Notes under the pieces: generated by a model
The model's input: only the letters and a program-made list of their open reading frames with translations
Databases searched by the model: none
What the model was told of the DNA's origin: nothing
Made by a program: the position numbers and the translations under genes
Source of the DNA: Silicimonas sp.
Lineage (GTDB): Bacteria; Pseudomonadota; Alphaproteobacteria; Rhodobacterales; Rhodobacteraceae
Reading direction: 5' to 3'
NCBI GenBank assembly: GCA_025800205.1
Contig: JAOXSD010000174.1
Coordinates: forward strand, 9,544-73,543
DNA length: 64,000 nt
Part shown: piece after piece, positions 7,746 to 57,543 of the stretch
Numbering within the stretch: position 1 is the first letter of the stretch
How the letters are laid out: each line of letters opens with the position of its first letter

Positions 7746-8413
7746 GCTTCGGGACAACATTTGACGCGTGGCGCGCGGCGGCCGGTCCCGATTGGGCGGC
7801 CTATACGCGCCACGCTTTCGTGCGCGGTCTGGGCGATGGCTCCCTGCCGCGCAAAGCCTTCCTGCACTATCTCAAGCAGGATTATGTCTTCCTGATCCAC
7901 TTCGCTCGCGCCTGGGCGCTGGCGGTGACCAAGGCCGAAACGGTGGAGGAAATGCGTCTTGCCGCCGGGACGGTCAACGGGTTGATCAACGAAGAAATCG
8001 CTTTGCATATCGAGACTTGCGCGGCGGCGGGCATTGATGAAGCAACCCTTTTCGCCACCGAGGAACGGCAGGAAAACCTGGCCTATACCCGTTATGTTCT
8101 GGATGCCGGCCATTCGGGGGATCTGCTGGATCTGTTGGCCGCCCTCGCGCCTTGCGTGATGGGATATGGTGAGATCGGCGCCCATCTGGCGGCAGCGAAA
8201 ACCTCCGAAACCTACGATGAGTGGATCGGCACCTATGCCGGTGACGGCTATCAGCAGGTCTGTCGCGATGTGGGGGCGCTGATCGATGGCGCGGTGGCGC
8301 GCCGTCTGGGCGAGACCCCCGAGGCCAGCCCCCGTTGGGCGGCGCTGGCGGCCCGGTTCCGCAAGGCCACCCAGCTTGAGGTCGGCTTCTGGGATATGGG
8401 GCTGACCCCGTGA
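7742..8413 (+). CDS. tenA: Aminopyrimidine aminohydrolase / thiaminase II TenA (Cys-containing type)
   Basis: TenA/heme-oxygenase-like fold: FVRGLGDGSLPRKAFLHYLKQDYVFLIHFARA. Has the candidate catalytic Cys in LAALAPCVMGYGEIG. ATGA overlap with the upstream gene. Confidence 0.85.
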   Translation: MSFGTTFDAWRAAAGPDWAAYTRHAFVRGLGDGSLPRKAFLHYLKQDYVFLIHFARAWALAVTKAETVEEMRLAAGTVNGLINEEIALHIETCAAAGIDEATLFATEERQENLAYTRYVLDAGHSGDLLDLLAALAPCVMGYGEIGAHLAAAKTSETYDEWIGTYAGDGYQQVCRDVGALIDGAVARRLGETPEASPRWAALAARFRKATQLEVGFWDMGLTP

Positions 8414-9132
8414 TGCGGGCGCCCGCGCTCCATTTGTCCGGCACGGCGCGGATCGGCGATCAACCGATCTTTGCCGGGCTGGATCTGCAGGTGGGCGCGG
8501 GCCAGTGGACCTGTCTTCTGGGTGCCAGCGGTGTGGGCAAATCCACTGTGTTGCGGCTGTTCGCCGGTCTGACCGAGGGTCTCGTGCTGGAAGGTCAGTG
8601 CGGCGCTTCCGATGGCTCGCTTGCGGGGCAGGTGGCGCTGATGGCGCAGGACGATCTGCTGCTGCCCTGGCTGCCTCTGGTCGACAATGTGCTGATTGGC
8701 GCACGGCTGCGTGGGGACCGCCCGGATCGCGCAGCCGCGCTCGATGTTCTGCGTCGGGTCGGGCTCGCGGATCATGCGGACAAGCATCCATCCGAATTGT
8801 CCGGGGGGCAGCGGCAGCGGGGTGCGTTGGCGCGCACCTTGATGGAAGACCGGCCCATCGTGTTGCTGGATGAACCCTTCTCCGCACTCGATGCGCTGAC
8901 CCGCGCCCAGATGCAGGATCTGGCCGCCGAAGTCCTTGCCGACCGCACTGTTTTGCTGGTCACCCATGATCCAGGCGAGGCGGCCCGGCTTGGTCAGCGG
9001 ATCGTGATCATGACCCATGGCGGCCTCGAGGAGGTCGCCACCCCCGATACCCCGATCCCGCGCCCGATGGAGGCGCCCGACGTTCTGCAGGCCCAGGCGG
9101 CGCTGCTGACCCAATTGAGGAGGCTGGCATGA
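8410..9132 (+). CDS. ABC transporter ATP-binding protein (NitT/TauT-type, thi-linked)
   Basis: Walker A GASGVGKST, signature LSGGQRQR, Walker B VLLDEPFSALD. Start overlaps the tenA stop. Confidence 0.9.
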   Translation: MMRAPALHLSGTARIGDQPIFAGLDLQVGAGQWTCLLGASGVGKSTVLRLFAGLTEGLVLEGQCGASDGSLAGQVALMAQDDLLLPWLPLVDNVLIGARLRGDRPDRAAALDVLRRVGLADHADKHPSELSGGQRQRGALARTLMEDRPIVLLDEPFSALDALTRAQMQDLAAEVLADRTVLLVTHDPGEAARLGQRIVIMTHGGLEEVATPDTPIPRPMEAPDVLQAQAALLTQLRRLA

Positions 9133-9782
9133 GCGCCACCGAAGAGCTTAAGTCCCGGAATGCAACTGCCTGGGAGGCGGCGACCCGACATGCTTTCACC
9201 GATGCGCTGGCCGATGGCAGCCTCGCGCGTGACAAGATGGCCGGGTATCTTCAGCAGGATTACCTGTTTGTCGAAGGCTTCGTGCGGCTTCTGGCCTCTG
9301 CCGTGGCCCATGCGCCGCGCCTTGCGGATGCGGTGCCGGGCGCCCAGTTCCTGGGCCTGATCTGCGGACCGGAGAACACATATTTCCTGCGCGCGCTCGA
9401 CGCGCTCGAGGTGCCCGAAGCCGAAGACGCCGCCCGGGAAACCCGTGCCTTTCAGGAGCTGATGGACGAGGCGCGCCGCTCGGGCCGCTATGAAATCATG
9501 CTGGCGGTGCTGGTTGTGGCCGAATGGGTCTATCTCGAATGGGCGCAACCCTTTGAGCGCCGCGCAGACGATCTGCCGTTCTGGCTGGGAGAATGGATCA
9601 CCCTTCATTCCGGACCCGGGTTCGAGGGCGTGGTGGCCTATCTGCGCGGCCAGTTGGATACGGTCTGGACGGGGCTGGACGAGGCGGGCCGGACCGACGT
9701 CGCCGCCATTTTTGCCCGCGCGGTGATTCTGGAACAGGCGTTTTTCGATGCCGCCTGGGCCGGGTTCCCGGTGGCGCGATGA
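9129..9782 (+). CDS. TenA-family protein, second copy, lacking the conserved Cys
   Basis: FTDALADGSLARDKMAGYLQQDYLFVEGFVRLL aligns with TenA. The position of the TenA Cys reads LAVLVVAEWVYLEWA (Ala). Overlaps both neighbours. Confidence 0.75.
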   Translation: MSATEELKSRNATAWEAATRHAFTDALADGSLARDKMAGYLQQDYLFVEGFVRLLASAVAHAPRLADAVPGAQFLGLICGPENTYFLRALDALEVPEAEDAARETRAFQELMDEARRSGRYEIMLAVLVVAEWVYLEWAQPFERRADDLPFWLGEWITLHSGPGFEGVVAYLRGQLDTVWTGLDEAGRTDVAAIFARAVILEQAFFDAAWAGFPVAR

Positions 9783-10519
9783 AAGCCTGGCAGGCCGGTC
9801 TGGCCTCGGCTCTGGCCGGGATCGCGGTGTGGCAGGCAGTGGTCAGCCTCACCGGCCTGCCCCGTTTCATTCTGCCGCCACCCGCATTGGTGGCGGAAAC
9901 GATCTGGGACAATCGGGCGCTTCTGGCCCATCATGCGGGCATCACCTTTGCCGAGGTGCTGATCGGGCTCGCCCTCGGGGCCATTCTCGGCGGGCTTTCC
10001 GCCATCGGCCTTGCAGCCTCGCCGCTCGCCCGTGTCCTGGTGCGCCCGATGCTGGTCTTTTCCCAGGCCATTCCGGTCTTTGCCCTGGCCCCGATCCTGA
10101 CCCTCTGGCTTGGATTCGGCCTTGGATCAAAGATCGCCATGGCCTTGATTATCATATATTTTCCCGTCACCTCATCGTTCTTTGATGCGTTGATGCGCAC
10201 CGATCGCGACTGGCTGGGTCTGGCCCGCGTCATGGGGGCGACACCGGCCCGGATCATGTGGCACATCCGTATTCCCGCCGCTCTTCCCGGTTTTGCTTCA
10301 GGCCTGCGCCTCGCTGCAGTTTATGCGCCCATCGGCGCGATCATCGGCGAATGGGTCGGTGCGTCCCAGGGGCTAGGCTACCTGATGTTGCTCGCCAACG
10401 GTCGCGCCAAGACCGACCTGATGTTTGCGGCCCTGATCACGCTCGCGGTGTTGACGCTTTTGCTCCATGCCGCGGTCAACAAGGCCTGCGAAAAGACCCT
10501 GGATCGGCCGAGCGGCTGA
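9779..10519 (+). CDS. ABC transporter permease (thi-linked)
   Basis: MKAWQAGLASALAGIAVWQAVV... is multi-TM with a BPD-transport-type loop. The ATG at 9779 overlaps the stop of the upstream gene. The track start at 9593 is an extension. Confidence 0.85.
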   Translation: MKAWQAGLASALAGIAVWQAVVSLTGLPRFILPPPALVAETIWDNRALLAHHAGITFAEVLIGLALGAILGGLSAIGLAASPLARVLVRPMLVFSQAIPVFALAPILTLWLGFGLGSKIAMALIIIYFPVTSSFFDALMRTDRDWLGLARVMGATPARIMWHIRIPAALPGFASGLRLAAVYAPIGAIIGEWVGASQGLGYLMLLANGRAKTDLMFAALITLAVLTLLLHAAVNKACEKTLDRPSG

Positions 10520-10572: not shown

Positions 10573-11025
10573 TCAGCGCCGCAGCGCTGGCAGAAGGTGG
10601 ACTGCGAATTTCAACTGGCTGGCAAGGTAGCCATTGGCTTTGGGAAGGCCGTCCGTCGCATCCGCCCGGCGCAGATTGTAGAACATGTGAAACGACGGTT
10701 CCGGAAGGCCTTCGTGTTCGATGATCCAGCGCGAGGGGATCAGCATCAGCCGGGGTAGGCCGGGGATATTGGCCTTTTCGAGGATCGGTGCGGCGCAGCT
10801 GTCGCAATGGCCGCGACGCAACAATGGCGGTTGCTTGTAGGCCTTGTAGGAGACGGATCCGGTCGAGCACTCCCGAAAGTCACGCGCGCGAAACACGGTG
10901 AAATCGGCGAAATCCCGATTGTGGTAGGATTTGCAGATCTCGCAATGACAATAGGCACGTAGCAAAGGCCGCGCAGTTTCGAACCGGATTTCACCGCAGG
11001 TGCATTGGCCGTTCAGCTGTGTCAT
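10573..11025 (-). CDS. GFA-family (glutathione-dependent formaldehyde-activating / CENP-V-like) zinc protein
   Basis: Cys motifs CTCGEIRF, CHCEICKS and CDSCAAPI, spaced as in the GFA family. 150 aa. Confidence 0.75.
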   Translation of the reverse strand: MTQLNGQCTCGEIRFETARPLLRAYCHCEICKSYHNRDFADFTVFRARDFRECSTGSVSYKAYKQPPLLRRGHCDSCAAPILEKANIPGLPRLMLIPSRWIIEHEGLPEPSFHMFYNLRRADATDGLPKANGYLASQLKFAVHLLPALRR

Positions 11026-11184: not shown

Positions 11185-12732
11185 TCAGAGATCGATTAGC
11201 ACCTGGCGTGCGGTCTCCAGATAGGCTGTCTGTGTTTCCGGTTTCATCCGGTCCCAGGTGCGATAAATCTGCCCGAGACGCGGATTGCCGCCCAGCCTGT
11301 CCCGGTTGCGCACCAGAAAATCCCAGTAAAGCGGGTTGAACGGGCAGGCGCCTTTGCCTGTTTTCTTCTGCACGTCAAAGGCACATCTGCCGCAATGATC
11401 GGACATCTTGTTGATGTAATTGCCGCTGGCCGCATAGGGTTTGGAGCCGAGGATGCCGCCATCGGCAAACTGGCTCATGCCGATCACATTGGGCGCTTCG
11501 ACCCATTCGAATGCATCGGCATAGACCGCCAGATACCATTCATGTACCTCGGCAGGGGCGACACCGGCCAGCATGGCGAAATTTCCGGTGACCATCAGCC
11601 GCTGGATGTGGTGGGCATAGGCCTCGTCCCGGGTTTGGCCGATGGCGGCGGCCAGACAGGCCATTCCGGTGTCCCCGGTCCAGTAGAACTCCGGCAGCGG
11701 GCGCGTGGCCTCGAGGTGGTTCATCTCGGTCAGGCCGGGCATGAAACGCCAGTAGATCCCCCGCACATATTCCCGCCATCCGATGATCTGGCGGATATAG
11801 CCCTCCGCCGCATTGAGCGGAGTGTGGCCGTCCAGATATGCGCGTTCGACCCTTTGGCACACTTCCAGCGGGTTCAGGAGGCCCGCGTTCATGTAGTGGG
11901 ACAGAACCGAGTGATAGAGGAAGTTCTCGCCCTCCAGCATCGCGTCCTGATAATCGCCGAAGCCGGGGAGCGCCTCGGTTGCGAAATGCTCCAGCGCGAC
12001 AAGGGCATCCTTGCGGGTGACGGCGAACCAGAAGGGGCGCAGGCGGCCGAAGTGGTCGCCAAACCGGTCGGCCACCAGATCGAGCACCGCCTCGGTCGTG
12101 GCATCCGGCGCGACCTGAAGGGGGCGCGGCATGAACAGATCGCCGCGCGCCGGTTTGCGGTTCTCCTGATCGAAATTCCACTGGCCACCCTCCGGGGCGT
12201 CGCCCTGCATCAAAAGCCCGGTCTTGCGCCGCATCTCGCGATAGAAATATTCCATCCGCAGGGCCTTGCGCCCCTCCGCCCAGGCTTCGAACATCCCGTG
12301 ACTGGCCAGAAACCGGTCGTCTTCGAGCATCTCGATGGCCACGCCTTCGGCCTCGGCCCAATCGCGGATCGCGGCCCTCAGCCGGTATTCCCCGGGCTCG
12401 GTCACCAGCAGGCTGTCGCAGCCGCAGGCCGCCATGGCCCGTGCAATCTCGCCCGGAATGGTGCCGCTGTTGCCCGGCGCGTCCAGCGTCACGTAACGCA
12501 GGTTCCAGCCCTCGCCGCGCAGGTCTTCGGCAAAGTGCCGCATGGCTGACAGGATAAAGGCGATCTTCTTCTGATGGTGGCGCACATAGGTCGCCTCACC
12601 GGCCACTTCGGCCATCAGGATCACGTCACGCCCCGGGTCGGCGGCTTTCAGGGCCGCCAGATCGGGGCTGAGCTGATCGCCCAGAATCAGAACCAGCCGG
12701 CGGGTGGCAAGGGATGGGGAGGTGTCGGTCAT
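11185..12732 (-). CDS. cryB: Fe-S bacterial cryptochrome/photolyase family protein (CryB / PhrB (6-4) photolyase type)
   Basis: 515 aa. RRLVLILGDQLSPD N-terminus and HHIQRLMVTGNF FAD-domain motif. Four Cys in the FeS-BCP pattern: C in GMACLAAAIGQ, plus CGRC-x12-C in DHCGRCAFDVQKKTGKGACPFN. Confidence 0.85.
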   Translation of the reverse strand: MTDTSPSLATRRLVLILGDQLSPDLAALKAADPGRDVILMAEVAGEATYVRHHQKKIAFILSAMRHFAEDLRGEGWNLRYVTLDAPGNSGTIPGEIARAMAACGCDSLLVTEPGEYRLRAAIRDWAEAEGVAIEMLEDDRFLASHGMFEAWAEGRKALRMEYFYREMRRKTGLLMQGDAPEGGQWNFDQENRKPARGDLFMPRPLQVAPDATTEAVLDLVADRFGDHFGRLRPFWFAVTRKDALVALEHFATEALPGFGDYQDAMLEGENFLYHSVLSHYMNAGLLNPLEVCQRVERAYLDGHTPLNAAEGYIRQIIGWREYVRGIYWRFMPGLTEMNHLEATRPLPEFYWTGDTGMACLAAAIGQTRDEAYAHHIQRLMVTGNFAMLAGVAPAEVHEWYLAVYADAFEWVEAPNVIGMSQFADGGILGSKPYAASGNYINKMSDHCGRCAFDVQKKTGKGACPFNPLYWDFLVRNRDRLGGNPRLGQIYRTWDRMKPETQTAYLETARQVLIDL

Positions 12733-12779: not shown

Positions 12780-13442
12780 TCAGGACAGGCGCGCCCGTCT
12801 GGCCTGCAAATCCTCCGGGTCGGTTTGCAAAAGGCGCGCGGCTTGTTCCGGATCACCGCCCGATTGCAGAAGGGCCGCGTCGATGCAGGCTGTTTCGATG
12901 TCGCGGGCGGCCTGGCGCAGGATCTCGTCCAGGGAGGCGTGCCCCAGTTGCGCGGCGAACGGGGCCATGGGATCAGGCATGCCACCGGCCCGCTCCGCCA
13001 ATGCCCGTTCCAGCCGCAGCTGCTCGGTCGCATATTGCCGCTCGACGGAGACCATCGGCCCCAGATCGCGGGCCAGCACGAGATGTTTCGCCTGGCCCTC
13101 GTTCACGAAGCGAAAGAACTTCAACAGGAGAGGCAGGCTCTCACCGGGGCCCGTGCGCAAATTGAGATGGCGCCAGCGGCCGTCCGACCCGGCCTGCGCC
13201 GCATTGTCCGACAGCAGCAATGGCAGCTTTCCGGCACTCTCCGAAAGAACTAGATCCTCCAGCCGCTGGCCGATCCAATTCGAGACCGCAGCCGGGTCCA
13301 GTTGCGATGTCACATGGAGCCCGAGAATGCGCCCGTCATCGGAGAGATTGAGGGTCAGGTCGGAACATTGCCGGATCACCAGGGCGGATTGCGGCAGGGT
13401 CAGCGATGTCAGCCCCTCATCTCCGATCCACCGACTGGTCAT
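12780..13442 (-). CDS. Truncated PpsR-like regulator (N-terminal PAS domain, Q-linker and C-terminal Fis-type HTH-like tail; central PAS1/PAS2 absent), 220 aa
   Basis: Aligns by eye with the window's own PpsR. NWIGQRLEDLVLSES matches QWYGEDFRSTLTVES. LVLARDLGPMVSVERQYATEQLRLERAL matches LLLGRDLRPVAALQQQLIESQRALERDY. LDEILRQAARDIETACIDAALLQSGGDPEQAARLL matches LKDIVAETTDEVEKICIKTAVDMTGNNRVAAAEML. The ATG at 13440-13442 is one nt from the stop of the upstream gene. The track start at 13571 would overlap that gene by 128 nt. Confidence 0.7.
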   Translation of the reverse strand: MTSRWIGDEGLTSLTLPQSALVIRQCSDLTLNLSDDGRILGLHVTSQLDPAAVSNWIGQRLEDLVLSESAGKLPLLLSDNAAQAGSDGRWRHLNLRTGPGESLPLLLKFFRFVNEGQAKHLVLARDLGPMVSVERQYATEQLRLERALAERAGGMPDPMAPFAAQLGHASLDEILRQAARDIETACIDAALLQSGGDPEQAARLLQTDPEDLQARRARLS

Positions 13443-13443
13443 C

Positions 13444-14214
13444 TCACAACCGCTTTTCTGCAGGCAGCGGGTCTTGTCGTTGCCGCAAATGGCGCGAGGC
13501 AGCGCCGGCATCGAGAAAAATCCGGTCGGCGCCCAGGAAGGCGTATTGCTCCAGCGGCGCGGTAAAGGCACCGCCGCCCAGAAGCACTTCCAGTTTCGAA
13601 TTCACGCTTTCCATGCGGGCATCCAGGATGAAATCGGCCATTCCAAGCAGGTTCCTATCATATCCCACGGAAATGCCCAATGCACAGGTCGCCGCAGTGG
13701 AGACCTCCTGCAGAACATCACGCGGATCCTGTCCGGTGATCATGGTCACATCCCAGCCTTCGGCGGTAAGCCGGTCGGCCAGCATTTGCGGTCCCAGCAG
13801 GTGATCCTCTTCGGCTGGCACGAACAATACGAAATTGCCGCAACCCCGCGCTCTGCCCGGTGCCGATCCGTCCAGTGTCGCGCTCAGCCGTCGCAGCAGG
13901 CCAAAGGCCTGGGCCACTTCGCTCGGAGAATGACGTCGTGTCTGGAGCGAGACCTGCAGGGTTTCGACAGAGCGCAACAACAGTGCCCTGCGCGCCACCG
14001 GGGTTCTGAGATCCTCGATCTGCGCGCGCGCGACCGCCATGTCGGAGCGCAGGGCCGCATTGAGAAAGTCGAGCTGTGCATCAAGCGAGACTTGCCTGGG
14101 TGCTCTGGCCTGATTTGCGTTGCTCAAGGCTGTTGCCAGGCTCGCGCGCTGAAGCATCAGCCCCTTGATCAGCCAGCCCTCGGTCTCGTTGCAGATTGAT
14201 GTCGCGCCGTCCAT
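13444..14214 (-). CDS. B12-binding-domain protein, AerR/PpaA-like (or AppA-SCHIC-like), second copy, 256 aa
   Basis: Helical N-terminal half, then a Rossmann-type cobalamin-binding domain with an ExHxxG motif: FVLFVPAEEDHLLGPQMLADRLTAEGWDV. The window's PpaA has VAVILRDCEQHTLGPIILANKLRLAGHTA. Shares RNL...LGG further on. Lies 63 nt downstream of the bchO stop. Confidence 0.7.
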   Translation of the reverse strand: MDGATSICNETEGWLIKGLMLQRASLATALSNANQARAPRQVSLDAQLDFLNAALRSDMAVARAQIEDLRTPVARRALLLRSVETLQVSLQTRRHSPSEVAQAFGLLRRLSATLDGSAPGRARGCGNFVLFVPAEEDHLLGPQMLADRLTAEGWDVTMITGQDPRDVLQEVSTAATCALGISVGYDRNLLGMADFILDARMESVNSKLEVLLGGGAFTAPLEQYAFLGADRIFLDAGAASRHLRQRQDPLPAEKRL

Positions 14215-14277: not shown

Positions 14278-15141
14278 TCAAGTCTGGCGTGATCCGGCAA
14301 GAAAGGCCCGCAGCGGGGTGGCGACGGTTTGCGGGGCTTCCTCCTGGGCCAGGTGACCCAGATCCGGCAGGACAATCAGGCGCGCCTGCGGGAGCCGGTC
14401 GGCGGCCTTGCGTCCGACCTCCGGCGGGACGGTTCGATCCCGTTCACCGACCAGCACCAGCGCCGACGCCTTCACCGCGGGCAGCGCGCGCAGAAGCGGC
14501 TTGAGATCCCAGGCGGCCATCATGGCCAGGGTGGCCGCCACGTGATCCCGGTCTTGCAAAAGGTGCAGGTAGCGCTGTTCCATGTCGGGCGTGATCTGTG
14601 ATCCGGTGGCGCGCAGCAATCTGCGGACCGTGCCCTTTCGTCCGGCCATGGTGCTGAACAGATCGGCTGTGAACGGCGCGCGGACCAGCCCGCGGGCAAG
14701 GGCGGGGAAGAGCCAGCCCGCCAGGCCTTCGAACCCGCTCAACGCCGGATTGATCAGGACGACGGCGGCGTTCCGTCCCCGCCGGCTCATCTCAAGCGCA
14801 ATTGCGGCCCCCGCTGAATGGCCGACGAGACCTGCAACGGGCCATCCTCCCGCTGTCAGCAAGGCGTCCAGATCTTCCGCCATGGCCGCCAGCCCGAACC
14901 GCCCCGGCCGTCCGGCCCGGGTGAAGCCCTGACCGGTCAGATCCGGAATGATCAGTGTGAACTCGTCTTTCAGGACATCCGCCAACCCGTGCCAGCTTTG
15001 CCCCGCGCCTCCCGCGCCGTGAAGCATCACCAGCCCTGGGCCGCGCCCCAGAACCTGCACATGCCAGCGGTGGCCTGCGGCCTCGATCTGGCGGCTGGCC
15101 TCGGCATGGGGCCAACCATGGGCCTGGGGCGGCCATTTCAC
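14278..15141 (-). CDS. bchO: BchO, alpha/beta-hydrolase-fold protein of the bchIDO operon
   Basis: (V)KWPPQAHGWPH...WHVQVLGRGPGLVMLHGAGGAGQSWHGL...LVGHSAGAAIAL. GTG start at 15139-15141 forms a GTGA overlap with the bchD stop. The 427-aa track ORF is an upstream extension over bchD. Confidence 0.85.
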   Translation of the reverse strand: MKWPPQAHGWPHAEASRQIEAAGHRWHVQVLGRGPGLVMLHGAGGAGQSWHGLADVLKDEFTLIIPDLTGQGFTRAGRPGRFGLAAMAEDLDALLTAGGWPVAGLVGHSAGAAIALEMSRRGRNAAVVLINPALSGFEGLAGWLFPALARGLVRAPFTADLFSTMAGRKGTVRRLLRATGSQITPDMEQRYLHLLQDRDHVAATLAMMAAWDLKPLLRALPAVKASALVLVGERDRTVPPEVGRKAADRLPQARLIVLPDLGHLAQEEAPQTVATPLRAFLAGSRQT

Positions 15142-16769
15142 ACCGCCCCCTCCAGCGCACGGGCAATCGCCCCGCTCATCCGGCGCGCATCCGCATGGGG
15201 CAGGGGCAGATAGGTGGCGGCCAGTGCGTCGGCAAGGCCGGGCAGGGTGGCTGAGGGGCGCGCGCCGGTGTCGATCACCATCGCGCTGACACGGTCGTCG
15301 GCCATCTGCCGGGCCACCCGGCTTGCATCCCCCATGGCATTGGCCCGGTTGCCGCTGCCATCGAGGGCCACATTGGCGCGGCCATCGGTCAACAGGATCA
15401 GCGCCGGGCTCATGCCGCGCCGCCGGGCGGCCTGTGCCTCGGCCCGCGCCGCCACCAGGCCCGCGGCCAGCGGTGTGCCGCCACCACCGGGGAGTGCGGT
15501 CAACCGCTTGCGGGTCTGGATCAGCGACCGGGTCGGGGGAAGCAACAGCGACGCTTCGCATCGGCGAAAGCCGATCAGGGCCACGTGGTCGCGCCGGGCA
15601 TAGGCCTGACCCAACAGGATCTCCACCGCGCCTTTCGCCTCCGCAAGCCGCGCCATGGCGGCCGATCCGGAGGCATCCACTGCAAAGATCAAAAGCCGGT
15701 CGGACCGGTGTTCAAACCGTCTGATCCGGAAATCCGAGGGTCGCAGCGCCAGCGCCATACCCTTCGGGCGCGGGCGCAACCCCTGCCAGGGCGCGGCGGC
15801 CCGCAGGGTGGCGATCACATCGAGCCGGGCGCCGCTGGTCAGCCGTCCGTTTTGTGCAGCAAGCGGTCGCCCGCGCCGGTTGTGGGCCTGTCTCGCCCCG
15901 CTGCCGGTGGTGGTCTGCGCCGCCCGTTGCCGCTGTCCCGCTTGCAACTGCGCCAGCAGATCCGCAGGCAGCGCCGCCTGCGCCGCGTCGATCAGCAATT
16001 CCTCGGGCGGTGAAGCGGTGTTCTGCGGTACGGGGGAATGGCTTTCTTCGGTCTCCGGCGGCGGCGCCTCGGGGGCCGGTGCCGTCCTTGCCCGATGGGC
16101 AAGGACCAGGGCGGCTGCACAGGTCAGATCCTCGGTCGCAACCCGCTCGCGACCGGCTTGCCCCGCCAGATGCCGCGCCGCCCTTGCGGCCATGAGCACG
16201 GGGCGCAGGGACGCAATCCCGAGACCGGATGCCGCTGCAGCGAGGTCCGTGATCTGTTCAGGGGTCAGCTCTGCTGGCGGGTCAGGTGCCCAGGTGCCGA
16301 CCTCGCCACTCTCGCGATGGGAGAGCCCGTCGAGATCGAGAAAGAACGCCAGCCGTTCGGTCAGCCCATGGGGCGGCAGTTCCTCGCAACTGGCCCCCTC
16401 GTCGAGCGCCACCACCCCATGCAGCCCCGCGTCGATCAGCCCGGTCAACCGGGCCGCAAATCCCGGCGTTGCGCGCTCCGCCATGGACAAGGCAAGCACA
16501 TCGGCGCGGGTGGCGATGCCGCCGGTTTCAACCAAACGTCCGGTGGCCAGCATCGCGGTCAGATCGCGCCCGCCGAACAGCGCCTCATCGCTCACATGGG
16601 GATGGATGTCGCCCAGCCGCAGATCAAGCGCGCGAAGGACCGCGATCACGCCCTGGCGCACCGGCCCGTGCCGGGCCCGGATCCAGATCCCTCCGAATCC
16701 TGCGGGATCGGCGGCAAACAGGCGCAGGACCAGCGCCACCCGGTCCCAGCCTTCGGGCGCCGCATTCAT
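15138..16769 (-). CDS. bchD: Mg-chelatase subunit D
   Basis: 543 aa. AAA-like N-terminal half, Pro/acidic linker (APAPEAPPPETEES) and a C-terminal VWA domain with the MIDAS motif FAVDASGS. Overlaps the bchI stop. Confidence 0.9.
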   Translation of the reverse strand: MNAAPEGWDRVALVLRLFAADPAGFGGIWIRARHGPVRQGVIAVLRALDLRLGDIHPHVSDEALFGGRDLTAMLATGRLVETGGIATRADVLALSMAERATPGFAARLTGLIDAGLHGVVALDEGASCEELPPHGLTERLAFFLDLDGLSHRESGEVGTWAPDPPAELTPEQITDLAAAASGLGIASLRPVLMAARAARHLAGQAGRERVATEDLTCAAALVLAHRARTAPAPEAPPPETEESHSPVPQNTASPPEELLIDAAQAALPADLLAQLQAGQRQRAAQTTTGSGARQAHNRRGRPLAAQNGRLTSGARLDVIATLRAAAPWQGLRPRPKGMALALRPSDFRIRRFEHRSDRLLIFAVDASGSAAMARLAEAKGAVEILLGQAYARRDHVALIGFRRCEASLLLPPTRSLIQTRKRLTALPGGGGTPLAAGLVAARAEAQAARRRGMSPALILLTDGRANVALDGSGNRANAMGDASRVARQMADDRVSAMVIDTGARPSATLPGLADALAATYLPLPHADARRMSGAIARALEGAV

Positions 16770-17767
16770 TGCAATTCGGCCACCGCGCGTTCCACCCGCA
16801 CGGTCGAACCGACCTCATCCAGGGGATCGCGCCGCAGCCGGTGACCGAGGCAGAGAGGCGCCACCGCGCGGATCTGGGCAAGCCCGACGGCATCCGCGCC
16901 CTCGAAGGCTGCGAGCGCGCGCGCCGCCCGCAACAGCGTCAACTCCCCGCGCAACCCGTCCGAGCCAAGAGCGCTGCACAGGGTCGCGCAATGGGTCAGG
17001 GCCGCCCGGTCGGCACTGGTGTCGCCAAGGGCGGCGCGCGCGGCCAGAATGCGGTTGCGCAGCCGTGTGTCGGCCGCGCGCCAGCGCTTCATGAAGGCCC
17101 GGTGATCGCGCTCATAGGCCTCCCGGCGCAGGATCACCTCGACCCGTTCCTCGATTGTGTCCGGGGAGCGCACTTCGACGGAAAGTCCAAACCGATCAAG
17201 AAGTTGTGGGCGCAGTTCCCCTTCTTCGGGATTGCCGGATCCGACCAGAACGAACCGCGCGGGATGGCGGATCGACAGGCCTTCGCGCTCCACGAGATTT
17301 TCGCCCGATTGCGCCACATCCAGCAGCAGGTCGACCAGATGATCTTCCAGCAGATTGACCTCGTCGATGTAAAGGTAGCCCCGGTTCGCCCGCGCCAGCA
17401 ATCCCGGCTCGAAGGCCTTTTCGCCGCGGGTCAACGCCCGTTCGATATCGAGCGCGCCCAGCACCCGGTCTTCGGTCGCTCCCAGCGGCAGATCAACCAC
17501 CGGGGTCGGGCGGGTGATCCTCCCTTGGTCCTCGATTTCCGCCCAGTCGGGGCAGTCTTCGGGACGGGCGGAATTCACCGGACAGCCCGCCACCTGTTCA
17601 ATCGGCGGCAGCAGGGCGGCAAGGGCGCGCACGGCGGTGGATTTGCCCGTGCCCCGGTCGCCAAAGACCAGAACACCGCCGATGCCGGGGTCGATGGCGG
17701 TCAGGATCATCGCGTGTTTCATCGCCTTCTGGCCGACGATGGCGGAAAAGGGAAAGGGTTGGCTCAT
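16766..17767 (-). CDS. bchI: Mg-chelatase ATPase subunit I
   Basis: MSQPFPFSAIVGQKAMKHAMILTAIDPGIGGVLVFGDRGTGKST. The ATG at 17767 forms an ATGA overlap with the crtA stop. The track start at 17812 is an extension into crtA. Confidence 0.92.
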   Translation of the reverse strand: MSQPFPFSAIVGQKAMKHAMILTAIDPGIGGVLVFGDRGTGKSTAVRALAALLPPIEQVAGCPVNSARPEDCPDWAEIEDQGRITRPTPVVDLPLGATEDRVLGALDIERALTRGEKAFEPGLLARANRGYLYIDEVNLLEDHLVDLLLDVAQSGENLVEREGLSIRHPARFVLVGSGNPEEGELRPQLLDRFGLSVEVRSPDTIEERVEVILRREAYERDHRAFMKRWRAADTRLRNRILAARAALGDTSADRAALTHCATLCSALGSDGLRGELTLLRAARALAAFEGADAVGLAQIRAVAPLCLGHRLRRDPLDEVGSTVRVERAVAELQ

Positions 17768-18417
17768 GGCGCTGCGCCTTCTGCAAGAACCGACATTGGC
17801 TGGCCGTCCCACCGGGGGCCTGCCTCGAGAATGTTGAACCGGGCGTATAGCTCTTCGCGGAACCAGCGCCCTTTGCGCACCGCCCGGATCGCTTGTGCAT
17901 GGGGGCCGTCTTGGCGGGCAAAAGCTGTGAGGCTTTCGGTGTCGGGCCAGATCGAAAAGGTGACCTGATGGAGCCAGGGCACTTCACCGATGCCGATCTT
18001 GAACATGACATTGGGGTCTGCGCCGATCCGGCGCGACACATCGGGCACCCGGCGCCAGAACCGGGCGAGGATCCGCGGTTTGAGCGTGGCGCGGGTGAGC
18101 ACGGCGACCGGTCCGCCGGTGGGGGCTTGGCTTGGGGTGAAGGGCGATGCCCCGGCCCAGGCACCGCGCGCGCCCGTGGGGGCAAGCAGCACGGTCCAGC
18201 TGTCGTCGGCCCGGGCCCGCCAGCGTTGGAACACGGGCGTCTCCGCCAGTCTGCGCCGCGCGGTCTCCGCATCGGGCCAGGTGGCGAGAATCGCCCAGAC
18301 CTTGGTGTTGGGCAATGGCGTAAACCCTTCGCCGGTGCCCGAGCCGCAGAGTTTCCAGAACCCGATATCGGGCAGAGCCGACAGGGCAGGACGGGCCGTT
18401 GCCATCTGCCCCAGCAC
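17764..18417 (-). CDS. crtA: Spheroidene monooxygenase CrtA (true start probably upstream of the first ATG; see findings)
   Basis: LGQMATARPALSALPDIGFWKLCGSGTGEGFTP... is typical CrtA. The frame stays open upstream and encodes IQTVSLSLFRFTPLSARLWV, which looks like genuine CrtA N-terminus, up to about 18474. Confidence 0.85.
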   Translation of the reverse strand: MLGQMATARPALSALPDIGFWKLCGSGTGEGFTPLPNTKVWAILATWPDAETARRRLAETPVFQRWRARADDSWTVLLAPTGARGAWAGASPFTPSQAPTGGPVAVLTRATLKPRILARFWRRVPDVSRRIGADPNVMFKIGIGEVPWLHQVTFSIWPDTESLTAFARQDGPHAQAIRAVRKGRWFREELYARFNILEAGPRWDGQPMSVLAEGAAP

Positions 18418-18518: not shown

Positions 18519-18536
18519 TGTAAACTAAACTGGACA
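18519..18536. promoter_or_regulatory. PpsR/CrtJ-type operator palindrome in the divergent crtA / crtI promoter region
   Basis: Perfect TGT-N12-ACA: TGTaaactaaactggACA, 16 nt upstream of the crtI ATG. Confidence 0.7.
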
Positions 18537-18552
18537 GATGTAGCGTGACTTC

Positions 18553-20103
18553 ATGACAGATCCCGATCCCTCAACCGCGCCGGACCATGCCGTGGTGATT
18601 GGCGCGGGCCTTGGTGGGCTGGCTGCGGCCATGCGGCTTGGCGCGCGCGGCTATCGGGTGACGGTGGTCGACCGGCTCGACAGCCCCGGCGGGCGCGCGT
18701 CGGCGATCCGGTTGGGGGGGCACCGTTTCGATCTGGGGCCGACCATTGTCACCGTGCCCCAGGTTTTCCGGGCGCTCTGGGCCGCCTGCGGGCGCGATTT
18801 CGACCACGAGGTGGATCTGCGCGCGCTCAACCCGTTCTATGAAATCCGCTGGCCCGATGGCAGCCGGTTCCGCGCCGAAGGCGACACCCAGGCCATGCTT
18901 GCCGAGGTCACCCGGTTGTCGCCCGATGATGGCGAGGGCTTTCTCAAGCTCCTGACCGAGGCCGAGACGCGCTATGATTTCGGCTTTGAGACTCTGGGGC
19001 GCAAACCGATGAACCGGCTTTGGGATCTCATCAAGGTGCTGCCGACCTTTGCCCGTCTGCGCGCCGATCGTTCGATCTACACCCATGTGGCGCGCCGGGT
19101 CCGTGACCCGCGACTGCGCATGGCGCTCAGCTTCCATCCGCTTTTCATCGGCGGGGATCCGACAAGAGTGACCTCGATCTATGCGCTGGTGGGCCATCTG
19201 GAAAAGGCCTTTGGCGTGCATTACGCCATGGGCGGGGTGGAGGCGATCGCCAGGGCCATGGTGCGGGTCATCGAGGATCAGGGCGGCGCGCTGCGCTTTG
19301 GTGCGGAGGCCGATGAAATCCTGATCGACCGGGGGCGCACCCATGGGGTGCGACTGACCGGCGGGGAGGAGATCCCCGCCTGTCTCGTCGTCTCCAATGC
19401 GGATGCGGGCCACACCTATTCGCGCCTGCTGCGCCACCATCCCAAACGTCGCTGGAGCAATCGCCGCCTGCGCCGCGCGCGCTGGTCCATGGGACTTTTC
19501 GTCTGGTATTTCGGCACCAAGGACAGCGCCGGTCACTGGCCTGATGTGGGTCATCACACGATCCTCAACGGCCCCCGTTATCGCGGTCTTCTGCGCGACA
19601 TGTTCCGCAAAGGGCGGCTGGCGGATGACATGTCGCTTTACCTCCATCGACCCAGTGTCACCGACCCCGGCGTTGCACCGGCGGGCGGGGACACATTTTA
19701 TGTGCTTTCGCCAGTGCCCCATCTGGGTTGGCGCGACCCGGTCAATTGGCACATGGAGGCCGAACCCTATCGCGCCCGGATTGCGGAAACACTGGAAGCC
19801 AGCCTGTTGCCGGGTCTTTCTGAAAAACTCACCGAGAACCTTACCTTCACGCCGGAGACCTTCCGCGACCGCTATCTCAGCCCCTTCGGCAGCGGGTTTT
19901 CGCTGGAGCCGCGCATCCTGCAATCGGCCTGGTTCCGGCCGCACAATGTGTCCGAGGAATGCGCGGGGCTCTATCTTGTCGGCGCGGGCACCCATCCGGG
20001 GGCGGGCCTTCCGGGCGTGATCTCCGCCGCCGAAGTGCTCGACCAGCTTGTGCCCGACCCGCAATGTCCCCGCGCGGCCCCGGTGTTGAGGGCGGCGGAA
20101 TGA
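18553..20103 (+). CDS. crtI: Phytoene desaturase CrtI
   Basis: 516 aa. FAD fold AVVIGAGLGGLAAAMRLGARGYRVTVVDR. C-terminal GLYLVGAGTHPGAGLPGV. Confidence 0.93.
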   Translation: MTDPDPSTAPDHAVVIGAGLGGLAAAMRLGARGYRVTVVDRLDSPGGRASAIRLGGHRFDLGPTIVTVPQVFRALWAACGRDFDHEVDLRALNPFYEIRWPDGSRFRAEGDTQAMLAEVTRLSPDDGEGFLKLLTEAETRYDFGFETLGRKPMNRLWDLIKVLPTFARLRADRSIYTHVARRVRDPRLRMALSFHPLFIGGDPTRVTSIYALVGHLEKAFGVHYAMGGVEAIARAMVRVIEDQGGALRFGAEADEILIDRGRTHGVRLTGGEEIPACLVVSNADAGHTYSRLLRHHPKRRWSNRRLRRARWSMGLFVWYFGTKDSAGHWPDVGHHTILNGPRYRGLLRDMFRKGRLADDMSLYLHRPSVTDPGVAPAGGDTFYVLSPVPHLGWRDPVNWHMEAEPYRARIAETLEASLLPGLSEKLTENLTFTPETFRDRYLSPFGSGFSLEPRILQSAWFRPHNVSEECAGLYLVGAGTHPGAGLPGVISAAEVLDQLVPDPQCPRAAPVLRAAE

Positions 20104-24030: not shown

Positions 24031-24071
24031 TGTCCATTCATAATTACATTTGGTGTATTTCACACATTACA
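24031..24071. promoter_or_regulatory. Tandem PpsR/CrtJ-type operators in the divergent crtD / crtE promoter region
   Basis: Two perfect TGT-N12-ACA palindromes 5 nt apart: TGTccattcataattACA (24031-24048) and TGTatttcacacattACA (24054-24071). Confidence 0.8.
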
Positions 24072-26070: not shown

Positions 26071-26114
26071 TGTCTATTTTAGTTGACAGTTTGATATGTG
26101 CTAATAGACTTACA
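26071..26114. promoter_or_regulatory. Tandem PpsR/CrtJ-type operators at the bchC promoter
   Basis: TGTctattttagttgACA (26071-26088) and TGTgctaatagacttACA (26097-26114), 8 nt apart, in an unusually AT-rich stretch just after the crtF stop. Confidence 0.8.
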
Positions 26115-51851: not shown

Positions 51852-55156
<3,305 letters not shown>

Positions 55157-55250: not shown

Positions 55251-56108
55251 GTGGCCCCGGCGGGGCCAGACATCCTCGGTGCTGTGACAGACCAGCGCGA
55301 GAGACAGATCATGACCGAAGCCTCATATTTCAAAGGCGCGGATAACGACGGGGTTCCGTCCCTATTGTGGGAAACGGTTGCCCGCGAGGCCCTTGAGGCC
55401 GTCGCCTCCAAGCCGCCGCCCGCGACCGGCGAAAAAGCCGATCCGGTCTTTGACCCGGCCTGGGTGCGCGAGATTGCCGATGCGGCCCATGACCCGCAAC
55501 TCACCCGGATCGGGCGGATCATCGATGGCTTGCTGGAACATGGCGTCGCTCCGCTGGCGATCATCGAGACCTATTGCGCCGAGGCCGCGCGCCTGCTGGG
55601 TGAGGATTGGCATTTCGACAGGCTCAGCTTTGCGCAGGTTTCCATTGGCACCGCGCGGTTGCAGGGGGTGGTGCGGGCGCTTTACGCCTCGCTTCCCCCT
55701 CAGGCGCTGGATCACGGCGCCCAGGTTGCGGTGATCCTGCGGGATTGCGAACAGCACACCCTGGGCCCGATCATCCTTGCCAACAAGCTGCGACTGGCCG
55801 GCCACACCGCCTGGCTGGCAGCTGGTTTCAGCGATGAGGAGATCCTCGAGCGCCTGAGCCGCCAAAGATTTGACATGGTTCTGTGCTCGGTCTCCCAGGA
55901 GCGAAATCTTGCAAATCTCGACAGCTTCCTGCAGACCGTGCGGGACCGCTGCGACAACCGGCTGGACATCGCGCTTGGCGGCAGTTTTCTCGACCGCTGC
56001 GGATCTCAGGCGGCAAGTGATACAGGAGCCGACATGGTGACGTCCGACATTCAGTTGATCCTGGACCGCCTGGCCGACCGAAGCACGAAGGCGCGGACCG
56101 CCACATGA
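55251..56108 (+). CDS. ppaA: Cobalamin-binding antirepressor PpaA / AerR
   Basis: B12-binding domain with an ExHxxG motif (VAVILRDCEQHTLGPIILANKLRLAGH). Lies immediately upstream of ppsR and divergent from bchF. GTG start at 55251; an ATG at 55311 (MTEASYF) is an alternative. Confidence 0.85.
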   Translation: MAPAGPDILGAVTDQRERQIMTEASYFKGADNDGVPSLLWETVAREALEAVASKPPPATGEKADPVFDPAWVREIADAAHDPQLTRIGRIIDGLLEHGVAPLAIIETYCAEAARLLGEDWHFDRLSFAQVSIGTARLQGVVRALYASLPPQALDHGAQVAVILRDCEQHTLGPIILANKLRLAGHTAWLAAGFSDEEILERLSRQRFDMVLCSVSQERNLANLDSFLQTVRDRCDNRLDIALGGSFLDRCGSQAASDTGADMVTSDIQLILDRLADRSTKARTAT

Positions 56109-56133
56109 GCAGGACAACAAGCGAGGGCGATGA

Positions 56134-57543
56134 ATGACCCAGCGAGGAACGGAATTCTGGACCGGCGGCGCGGTGCCGATCATCGGGCCCGAGGTGCTGA
56201 TCAGCATTGTCGGCAGCGCCTCTGATGTGGCGGTGGTGGTGAACCCCGAAGACGCCATCGTCTCGGTCATGGTCAATCCCAACGCCCATGGTCTGGAGGC
56301 CTTTGACCAGTGGTATGGCGAGGATTTCCGCAGCACGCTGACCGTCGAGAGCCTTGCCAAATTCGAGGAACGCGCCGCCCTATTGCGCGGCGGCGGCGAC
56401 AGCCGGGCGGCGCTTGAGCTGAACCACACCTTCCCGGGTGGCAGCGATGCGCCCATGCAATATTGGGTGTTTCGCATCGGCAGCGATCCGACGCTTCTGC
56501 TGTTGGGCCGTGATCTGCGCCCGGTGGCTGCCCTTCAGCAACAGCTGATCGAAAGCCAGCGCGCCCTTGAACGCGATTATGAAATTCAGCGCGAGGCGGA
56601 AACCCGACTTCGGGTGGCGCTCGAATCCGCCGATCAGGCAATGATCTTTGCTTCGCTCACCAGCGGCCGGATCCGCATGGTCAATCAGCGCGCCTGTGAC
56701 CTGTTGGGGGTGAAGCGCGATCTGGTGGTCGACAGCGCGCTCAGCAGCCATTTTACCGGCCTGCCGGGCGAGATCATCGACCGGTTGGTCCATGCCGGGT
56801 CCGAGGATCTGGGCAAGCCGGTCGAACTGACGGTCAAGCGCAACGCTCAGGCGGTGCTGGCCGCGCCAATCCTTTATCGCGCCTCAGGCGAGAAGATGCT
56901 GCTCTGCCGGCTCAACTTGCCCGATCAAAACCCCATGCGCCGCGATGGGCTTGGCGACCTCCTGACCGGCCATTATCAGAACATGAGCGACGGCATGCTC
57001 TTCGTGAATGGCTCGGGCACGATCAAGACCGCCAATGACGCGTTCCTGAGCCTCTGCCTGGCGCCCGATCTGAACCGGGTCACCAGTCGGCCATTGGCGG
57101 ATTTTCTTGAGCGCGGGACCCTGGATGTGCGGCTCGCCCTGGAGAATGCCGCACGCAACGGAGAAATACAGGGTTTTGCCACACGTCTTCGCACAGAGCA
57201 CGGCGAAACTCTGGCCGTGGAGCTGTTTGTCACGGCGGTGGATACGGGCGAGGGGGAGATGTATGCGGTCACCTTCCGCGACATGGCCCGCCGGGCGACC
57301 ACCACTCCGGGCGCTTCGGACGGCAGGGATCGCAAGGCGCAGAACGTGGCGGATCTGGTGGGCAGCACGCCCCTGAAGGACATCGTGGCCGAAACCACCG
57401 ACGAGGTGGAAAAGATCTGCATCAAGACGGCGGTGGACATGACCGGAAACAACCGGGTGGCCGCTGCCGAGATGCTCGGCCTCAGCCGCCAGAGCCTTTA
57501 TGTGAAACTGCGCAAATTCGGACTGCTCAAGAAGGACGGTTGA
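56134..57543 (+). CDS. ppsR: Photosynthesis gene repressor PpsR / CrtJ
   Basis: 469 aa. N-domain, Q-linker (QQQLIESQRALERDYEIQREAE), two PAS domains and a C-terminal Fis-type HTH (GNNRVAAAEMLGLSRQSLYVKLRKFGLL). Confidence 0.92.
   Translation: MTQRGTEFWTGGAVPIIGPEVLISIVGSASDVAVVVNPEDAIVSVMVNPNAHGLEAFDQWYGEDFRSTLTVESLAKFEERAALLRGGGDSRAALELNHTFPGGSDAPMQYWVFRIGSDPTLLLLGRDLRPVAALQQQLIESQRALERDYEIQREAETRLRVALESADQAMIFASLTSGRIRMVNQRACDLLGVKRDLVVDSALSSHFTGLPGEIIDRLVHAGSEDLGKPVELTVKRNAQAVLAAPILYRASGEKMLLCRLNLPDQNPMRRDGLGDLLTGHYQNMSDGMLFVNGSGTIKTANDAFLSLCLAPDLNRVTSRPLADFLERGTLDVRLALENAARNGEIQGFATRLRTEHGETLAVELFVTAVDTGEGEMYAVTFRDMARRATTTPGASDGRDRKAQNVADLVGSTPLKDIVAETTDEVEKICIKTAVDMTGNNRVAAAEMLGLSRQSLYVKLRKFGLLKKDG

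Follow-up and report, generated by a model that had tools for sequence, protein, structure and literature searches.

A 64,000-nucleotide stretch of DNA from Silicimonas sp. (contig JAOXSD010000174.1; hereafter the window) contains, on its minus strand, a gene for a short relative of PpsR that is directly preceded by a gene for a B12-binding protein. The short protein, referred to here as mini-PpsR (12780..13442; 220 amino acids [aa]; MCV6593452.1, annotated at NCBI as "hypothetical protein"), was identified from its open reading frame (ORF), its start context and its homology to PpsR; its AerR/PpaA-like partner (13444..14214, minus strand; 256 aa; MCV6593453.1, "cobalamin B12-binding domain-containing protein" at NCBI) was identified from the Pfam B12-binding domain, a match to the AerR structure 7TE2, and synteny. 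To judge by their sequences, the two proteins descend from a PpaA-PpsR pair. We read them, with about even confidence, as a two-protein module for the sensing of B12 and light, the output of which would be delivered through protein contacts and not through operators. The window carries a canonical PpaA-PpsR pair in addition (55251..57543, divergent from bchF-bchN), made up of a PpaA/AerR-like gene with a Pfam B12-binding match (55251-56108, plus strand) and a gene for full-length PpsR with Pfam PAS and HTH_8 matches (56134-57543, plus strand).

The homology between mini-PpsR and PpsR falls into two blocks. BLASTP aligns residues 2-146 with residues 6-147 of the window PpsR (E 2e-4) and residues 95-215 with residues 352-458 (E 6e-4), the two proteins being about 25% identical. 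The NCBIfam model for PpsR-CrtJ (TIGR02040) covers residues 25-146 with profile positions 4-123 (E 1.1e-13) at 51.1 bits, below its curated cut-off of 275.4 bits; the window PpsR scores 349 bits. When an alignment of 22 mini proteins was compared with 34 full-length PpsR sequences by hhalign, residues 2-151 corresponded to PpsR 5-152, which is the N-domain and the first half of the Q-linker (probability 99.9%, E 3e-34), and the tail alone, residues 159-220, corresponded to PpsR 402-463, the helix-turn-helix (HTH) region (probability 98.8%, E 6e-17). The segment without a counterpart is therefore about PpsR 153-401, some 250 residues that hold PAS1, PAS2 and the PAS1 N-cap half of the Q-linker. 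A first-pass annotation, made by eye, had described the protein in just this way, as an N-terminal PAS-like domain and a Q-linker helix followed by a jump to the segment before the HTH, with about 250 residues missing; the formal pairwise and profile alignments, with statistics well above random, bear out each of these points, the Q-linker being present in its N-terminal half only.

The predicted structure agrees with this layout. A Pfam search of mini-PpsR gave no PAS match (the window PpsR gives PAS, PAS_4, PAS_8 and PAS_9), and the AlphaFold model, with a mean predicted local distance difference test (pLDDT) score of 87.5, has a single PAS domain. In the model a long helix (128-151) follows the N-cap helix and PAS domain (residues 16-126); a short flexible linker modelled at low confidence (152-158) then leads to tail helices at 159-166, 171-193, 198-204 and 209-219. 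The seven best Foldseek matches in the PDB were all Rhodobacter sphaeroides PpsR (4HH3, 4HH2, 4L9G; E 2e-8 to 2e-6 over 142-155 aligned columns), and a PDB profile search with the mini family gave 4HH3 at E 2e-12. The PpsR-type N-terminal PAS domain with its N-cap helix (13065..13397, minus strand) is modelled at pLDDT 93-98, is assigned from the Foldseek matches and from invariant columns, and carries the motifs RWRHLN and PLLLK. The helix after it (12990..13061, minus strand), assigned from hhalign and column frequencies, is the N-terminal half of the Q-linker and begins with an RDLxP motif.

Mini-PpsR belongs to a sizeable family. Word-index protein searches gave 9, 20 and 1 matches and suggested that such proteins are very rare; an exhaustive profile search of 1.84 billion representatives corrected this impression, with 53 proteins at E < 1e-30. 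We sorted 170 retrieved relatives by the blocks present: 85 are full-length PpsR, 71 consist of the N-domain and Q-linker (N-Q) region plus the tail (188-254 aa), 13 have the N-Q region only, 11 of which are genuine tail-less proteins of 152-180 aa, and a single protein of 360 aa (P0058) is intermediate, with N-Q, PAS1 and a canonical HTH. About 80 short-type relatives, counted as clusters at 50% identity, have intact ORFs of constant length. Neighbour-joining analysis of the N-Q region places 79 of the 81 short proteins in one clade with no full-length PpsR inside it, and this clade has hallmarks of its own (RWRHLN, PLLLK, RDLxP). The two outliers, P0141 and P0105, both have an above-threshold HTH_8 match; P0141 (246 aa, N-Q-HTH) keeps the canonical SRQSLY helix and P0105 has a basic helix 3, and by their sequences both look like independent deletions. 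All members of the mini family come from metagenome-assembled genomes (MAGs) or metagenomes, and they are named hypothetical, HTH domain-containing or Fis ("DNA-binding protein Fis" in IMG). No Pfam, NCBIfam or PHROGs model captures the pair of mini protein and B12 protein, and the literature searched described neither such a pair nor a short PpsR, and mentioned no second ppaA and no PpsR/B12 gene carried by a phage.

By the Nei-Gojobori method, the closest pair for which DNA was available had a dN/dS of 0.20 (mini gene) and 0.26 (partner gene); in more distant pairs, where synonymous sites are near saturation, it was 0.3-0.5. Mini-PpsR thus represents a conserved family under purifying selection and is not a decaying duplicate. 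The latter alternative, raised by the first-pass annotation, holds that the gene is a functionless internal-deletion copy of ppsR, and the deletion relative to PpsR is indeed large; a few relatives also look damaged, P0004 and P0068 having frameshifted ends and P0130 (305 aa) being a chimera in which the beginning of a B12 partner runs into the end of a mini protein, by deletion or as an assembly artefact. The intact ORFs of constant length in some 80 clusters, the invariant motifs, the dN/dS of about 0.2, the old and separate monophyletic clade and the conserved translational coupling to the partner gene, described below, refute decay as an account of the family, and we attach almost no weight to it.

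The tail of the mini family has lost the DNA-reading residues of PpsR. It comprises residues 159-220 (12783..12968, minus strand) and was assigned as a Fis-family, PpsR-type HTH fold from hhalign, HTH_8, the NtrC DNA-binding domain (1NTC) and column statistics; it scores 18 bits against Pfam HTH_8, under the 22-bit cut-off, and the profile of the mini family, taken through the tail, matches 1NTC at E 1.5e-4. The "HTH-like tail" of the earlier annotation is therefore present, and its description can be refined: as modelled, the fold is complete (helices 171-193, 198-204 and 209-219) and only the DNA-contact surface is changed, the hydrophobic core being kept in the family. The altered recognition helix also stands, with LSRQSLYVKLRKF in PpsR and TDPEDLQARRARL in the mini protein (residues 207-219, 12786-12824, minus strand). 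Column statistics for 85 full-length PpsR and 70 mini proteins, in the numbering of the window PpsR, extend this to the family: N440, R441, S451, R452, Q453, S454, Y456 and K458 are 89-100% conserved in PpsR and are replaced across the mini proteins. Arginine is found at position 441 in 25% of them and at position 452 in none (V, L, T or S being found instead); position 453 is E or D in 62%, position 454 is D or E in 76%, and position 456 is varied. The SRQxLY signature occurs in 83 of the 85 PpsR proteins and in one of 71 mini proteins, and the complete recognition signature N-R ... S-R-Q-S-L-Y-x-K is absent from the window mini protein. Over the 13 residues after the turn (helix 3) the net charge averages -0.22 in mini proteins versus +3.71 in PpsR, and is 0 in the window mini protein. 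The single conserved cysteine of the domain has been retained: Cys186 (codon 12885-12887) aligns with Cys429 of the window PpsR, in a column occupied by Cys in 91% of mini proteins versus 92% of PpsR proteins, and a redox-sensing role has been assigned to this HTH-domain cysteine in CrtJ (Cys420) and PpsR (Cys424) (PMC4452267).

The 11 relatives without a tail are paired with the same type of B12 partner. Together with the loss of the contact residues this argues, at the level of sequence, that the function common to the mini family does not depend on operator binding, and binding or repression at TGT-N12-ACA by mini-PpsR is unlikely; the view of the first pass that it is no classical repressor is upheld. 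A retained HTH fold nevertheless suggests another explanation, in which mini-PpsR binds DNA after all, as a short regulator that recognises a new operator, and the B12 protein is its light or cobalamin switch, the two forming a split, two-chain analogue of the CarH/LitR-type B12 photoreceptor-repressors. The completeness and confident modelling of the fold, the conservation of the tail under purifying selection, the RR-R in the second half of helix 3 of the window protein and the IMG name "DNA-binding protein Fis" of some members all speak for it; P0141 with its SRQSLY helix and P0105, each with an above-threshold HTH_8 match, indicate that there are short PpsR forms that could bind DNA, and the prophage and island contexts described below would suit a repressor-like regulator. 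However, the near-invariant contact residues of PpsR are all lost, including the N-R pair of helix 2; helix 3 is unconserved in the family save for an acidic pair and has a net charge that is about zero or negative; the window protein scores under the Pfam cut-off for HTH_8; and since the eleven tail-less relatives have the same B12 partner, the core function can do without the tail. Recognition of a different operator is thus possible but disfavoured, and we hold this explanation as a whole to be unlikely.

Pairing with the B12 protein is constant in the family. At 21 of 21 distinct loci, among them metagenome contigs, GTDB MAGs, one 3.9-Mb contig and two IMG/VR viral contigs, the mini gene lies directly 3' of a gene with a B12-binding domain, the two being separated by 1-24 nt or overlapping by 8 nt. 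In the window, 1 nt lies between the TGA of the B12 gene (13444-13446) and the ATG of mini-PpsR at 13442 (junction TGAGATG), and the mini-PpsR stop codon is at 12780-12782. A GTG at 13571, which would give a protein of 263 aa and a 128-nt overlap with the B12 gene, was rejected as the start, the homologues all starting at the position of the ATG at 13442. The mini gene is translationally coupled to a dedicated B12 gene, in an obligate pairing that was not part of the earlier interpretation.

The window partner matches Pfam B12-binding (PF02310) at E 4e-7 with 30.2 bits, just under the 32.1-bit cut-off, and the partners at other loci score 35-50 bits. Its closest solved relatives are AerR (7TE2, E 0.003) and a B12-binding GGDEF protein. 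His138, in EEDHLLG (codon 13801-13803), aligns with the ligand-motif His of AerR in 7TE2, and all 18 partner sequences that were aligned have the cobalamin-ligand His of the (E/D)xHxxG motif. The upstream gene was nearer to the window partner than to the window PpaA at 8 of the first 10 loci where both comparisons scored; loci where only the window partner scored were likewise counted as nearer to it. By sequence, the partner is an AerR/PpaA-like B12 protein of a distinct lineage. The partner family has a conserved pattern LE..W...D / AFW..R.L, of which the window protein lacks the Trp, and long helices are predicted in the window partner at 2-36, 44-80 and 97-114 in a model of low confidence (pLDDT 47). 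An N-terminal Cys-x(2-6)-Trp motif is found in 8 of 17 partners (CNETEGW in the window), all of the long form; these include the partners in the window (13444-14214) and at loci L004, L006, L010, L012, L013, L022 and L032. Shorter partners are without the N-terminal extension, which recalls the long and short forms of AerR.

The half of the Q-linker that has been kept is the part through which such a partner could act. In PpsR of R. sphaeroides, the Q-linker makes up the dimer's coiled coil, contacts PAS2 of the other dimer within the tetramer, and is where the four-helix bundle of AppA binds (PMC3949515). The part in oligomerisation that the first pass had ascribed to the N-domain and Q-linker is confirmed by that work, which assigns the contact with AppA to the Q-linker. 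Modelling has placed AerR on this site in CrtJ, where it faces Q133, L136, Q140, E144, Y147 and R151 (PMC9144470). In mini-PpsR, E134, Y137, Q141 and E145 sit at the positions of CrtJ Q133, L136, Q140 and E144. These first four face positions are Q in 95%, L in 91%, Q in 90% and E in 85% of full-length PpsR, and Q in 70%, F in 70%, H or Q in 58% and E in 64% of mini proteins; the docking face is, by its residues, still recognisable but has family-specific changes.

By analogy, mini-PpsR would dimerise via its N-cap and Q-linker, as PpsR N-Q-PAS1 does, and the helical bundle of the partner would dock on the mini Q-linker as AppA does on PpsR2 and as AerR is modelled to do on CrtJ2, which would put the complex under the control of cobalamin and light state. 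The complex would act through a protein-protein contact and not by binding an operator. The PpsR system itself is, in our estimate, the most likely target, although with a probability of only roughly one in three. The mini Q-linker, exposed without a PAS2 of its own, might be captured by PAS2 of PpsR, or the mini tail might pair with the HTH domain of PpsR; by either route cooperative repression would be weakened in a dominant-negative or anti-repressor manner. The position of the module at the end of the crtA-bchIDO string, downstream of a palindrome, could place its dosage itself under PpsR control. Tetrapyrrole or photosynthesis genes surround the module in the window, at L001, L004 and L017 and at L019 and L014, which speaks for this reading, and a precedent is offered by LdaP, a stand-alone PAS protein that is a PpsR antirepressor in a roseobacter (PMC10890935).

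A number of observations count against a module of this kind directed at PpsR. On the Q-linker face, L has changed to F and Q to H, Q or L in a family-specific manner; a face that is recognisable yet changed fits co-evolution with a private B12 partner, and would suit it better than cross-talk with PpsR or PpaA, although the mini protein may still cross-talk with PpsR PAS2 or with PpaA. The mean identity between the mini clade and PpsR in the N-Q region is about 26%. The AlphaFold model of the partner, built on a three-row alignment, is too poor at its pLDDT to confirm a four-helix bundle, and a Trp conserved in 17 of 18 partner helical regions is Leu in the window partner (TLQVSLQTRRH). Late helix 3 of the window mini protein keeps three arginines (ARRAR). 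Finally, at most loci there is no photosynthesis gene within 10 kb, and some copies are in prophages; a PpsR-related target can therefore not be assumed in every host.

The distribution of the cassette is disseminated, and its sequence contexts indicate that the module is mobile. It was found in at least eight different neighbourhoods, and no conserved third gene was found around the module at the other loci. At L001, L004 and L017 it follows puhE-hemA-cytochrome c, at the end of the photosynthesis cluster, and at L019 and L014 it lies between an M24 peptidase gene and hemE/hemC, where a TGT-N12-ACA palindrome is conserved in the divergent intergenic region of hemE and hemC (L019 11588-11605; L014 2864-2881). 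Apart from this site, the placement of PpsR-type palindromes near the module at other loci was inconsistent. In Roseovarius-like genomes (L019 9358-12569; L014 573-3155; L011 9334-10979) it is a tail-less version of 159 aa that lies beside hemE and hemC, and cobD is found a few kb upstream. The cassette is among housekeeping genes at L010, L012, L013 and L024. At L020 (6569-10681) and L021 the copy P0203 (226 aa) has a phage-type integrase and an AAA_25 ATPase 1.5 kb away, which suggests an integrative island.

Prophage-like copies were found at L022 (9191-10711), L023 (6941-8428), L026 and L032 (597-2042), the last two being viral contigs in IMG/VR (UViG_3300048592_001388 and UViG_3300027870_000265, respectively). 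The prophage-borne cassette lies between a terminase small-subunit gene and a ParB-N6-methyltransferase gene, flanked by lambda-like head genes in one direction and by primase and helicase genes in the other. The identities of terminase, portal, major head protein and primase in these regions are confirmed by PHROGs, whereas neither protein of the module matches a PHROG or a GenBank phage. A tblastn search of the GenBank phage collection with a phage-borne member gave no match. A scan of IMG/VR with a degenerate DNA pattern gave one more viral contig among 60 candidates, and a second scan with family peptide patterns found no further copies.

These contexts make it necessary to consider that the cassette is a self-contained sensor of B12 and light, possibly also of redox state, with a target unrelated to PpsR, for example a switch of a mobile element or phage that acts on other host or phage proteins, for which the site in the window would be one of many insertions. 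The variety of neighbourhoods without a conserved third gene, the adjacent phage-type integrase, the two viral contigs with their cassette between terminase and methyltransferase genes, the separation of the mini clade from PpsR and the divergence of the Q-linker face are all in keeping with it. Yet three independent lineages have the cassette beside tetrapyrrole or photosynthesis genes, both halves derive from the PpaA-PpsR pair with the interaction helix partly kept, and the identifiable named carriers are Rhodobacterales-type MAGs, the genera of which include known phototrophic members; an unrelated target strikes us as somewhat unlikely. Mobility and a PpsR target could also be combined: a cobalamin- and light-gated PpsR mimic, carried by islands and temperate phages, would poison or re-tune the PpsR oligomer of the host, and roseobacter-type islands and phages would by this means take control of host photosynthesis and tetrapyrrole gene expression. 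We regard this mobile anti-repressor, taken with its consequence for the host, as an improbable conjunction.

The proposal of the first-pass annotation, that mini-PpsR is a decoy or adaptor in mixed oligomers with PpsR, is accordingly supported in part. That the protein is not a classical repressor holds; a simple local decoy of the window PpsR has become less likely, given the old, separate clade with about 25% identity to PpsR, the family-specific changes in the Q-linker and the position of most copies outside photosynthesis clusters, prophages included. The pairing with the B12 gene, the tail-less relatives and the retained redox cysteine are points that it did not contain.

In the window, the module forms the end of a same-strand string crtA-bchI-bchD-bchO. 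These minus-strand genes are crtA (17764-18417; NCBIfam CrtA, 335 bits), bchI (16766-17812) and bchD (15138-16769), both assigned from their ORFs, and bchO (14278-15141; NCBIfam BchO, 274 bits); crtI (18553-20103; NCBIfam) is divergent from crtA. Pattern search located a PpsR-type palindrome, TGTAAACTAAACTGGACA, in the crtA/crtI intergenic region (18519..18536), which is the nearest candidate PpsR operator upstream of the string ending in the module; none lies directly upstream of the module itself, between 12700 and 14300. The 63-bp gap between bchO and the B12 gene contained no terminator-like site in a terminator scan and, with the palindrome, makes co-transcription of the module from a PpsR-controlled promoter plausible. 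TGT-N12-ACA palindromes are commoner in the window than expected by chance (12 observed versus 4.35 expected), and some occur in close pairs, at 24031/24054, 26071/26097 and 55066/55139 (spans 24031-24071, 26071-26114 and 55066-55156), an arrangement that, by sequence pattern, is as expected for PpsR-regulated promoters.

Downstream, 47 bp separate mini-PpsR from a same-strand gene of the CryB/FeS-BCP cryptochrome/photolyase-related type (11185..12732, minus strand; Pfam DPRP PF04244, E 5e-82, and NCBI name), and the two are possibly co-transcribed. This adjacency, unique to the window among the loci examined, is suggestive because in R. sphaeroides the C-terminal part of AppA, which resembles a B12 domain, is bound by CryB, and CryB modulates the interaction of AppA with PpsR (PMC3401432). 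The module and cryB form the edge of the photosynthesis cluster in the window; beyond them are a putative ORF of 150 aa without an NCBIfam match (10573-11025), ABC transporter genes (8410-9132 and 9593-10519) and a TenA-like thiaminase II gene (9129-9782).

Among known systems, mini-PpsR is closest to PpsR/CrtJ (TIGR02040; 4HH2, 4HH3, 4L9G), with which it shares the N-terminal PAS domain and its N-cap, the RDLRP start of the Q-linker, the pre-HTH segment LG..PL..IV.E....IE..C..EAL with the conserved HTH cysteine, and the gene position directly after a B12-binding gene. It differs in having no PAS1, PAS2 or PAS1 N-cap half of the Q-linker, no S-R-Q-x-L-Y-x-K and no N-R pair, in its score (51 against a 275-bit cut-off) and in its separate clade, and the PAS2-dependent tetramers and operator reading of PpsR are not expected of it. 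On these features it is a protein built from PpsR parts that stands outside PpsR/CrtJ membership. The AerR/PpaA-CrtJ/PpsR and AppA-PpsR2 pairs have the same order of a sensor gene followed by a PpsR-type gene, and their sensors the same B12-binding Rossmann domain with a ligand His, before which a helical region is predicted in the window partner; the AppA site and the modelled AerR site are retained in the mini Q-linker. The sensor in the window, however, is of a distinct lineage, with a 7TE2 match of only E 0.003, and its receiver, to go by its contact residues, could not repress by itself.

CarH and LitR likewise couple a cobalamin-binding domain with a helical cap, used in light sensing, to an HTH-containing output, but CarH unites both in one chain and its MerR-type HTH is functional, whereas the mini module divides them between two proteins and its Fis-type HTH is degenerate or absent. 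Id-type helix-loop-helix proteins and plant microProteins are dominant-negative, truncated paralogues of transcription factors; as in mini-PpsR, an oligomerisation module is retained, the DNA-reading surface is lost and a separate gene exists beside that for the full-length factor, but mini-PpsR has a sensor partner of its own, and its heteromer with PpsR is a proposal. The best functional precedent for the proposed action is LdaP (Dshi_1135) of Dinoroseobacter shibae, a short LOV antirepressor of PpsR and likewise a small, stand-alone PAS-type protein of a roseobacter, which regulates the photosynthesis cluster by binding PpsR and not DNA (PMC10890935). LdaP itself senses light, through flavin mononucleotide and a LOV cysteine, whereas mini-PpsR is PpsR-derived and its signal would come from the separate B12 protein; the LOV motif GxNCRFLQ is absent from its 220-aa sequence, and among its Foldseek matches short LOV structures come no higher than ranks 28 and 37, as weak matches of a generic PAS kind.

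Some 80 clusters now labelled "hypothetical", "HTH domain-containing" or "Fis" could be given a consistent annotation on the basis of this family. Its least expected aspects are the copies carried by phages and the forms without a tail. The prophage and integrase-adjacent copies suggest that light- and B12-dependent regulatory cassettes move horizontally. Were the mobile anti-repressor real, bacteria and phages would have their own counterpart of the microProtein-type dominant negatives, and a new class would be added to the auxiliary regulatory genes of phages. Should mini-PpsR act on PpsR, it would be a clear example from bacteria of a truncated paralogue that regulates without reading DNA. 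The central switch by which light and oxygen govern photosynthesis genes in purple bacteria is PpsR together with its B12 or BLUF antirepressors, and opinions still differ on how the sensor signal passes through the Q-linker; a minimal pair occurring in nature, made up of a B12 sensor and a protein reduced to the N-terminal PAS domain, half a Q-linker and a silent HTH would offer a compact system for the study of Q-linker signalling. In the aerobic anoxygenic phototrophs the module would add a third regulatory layer, beside PpaA and LdaP.

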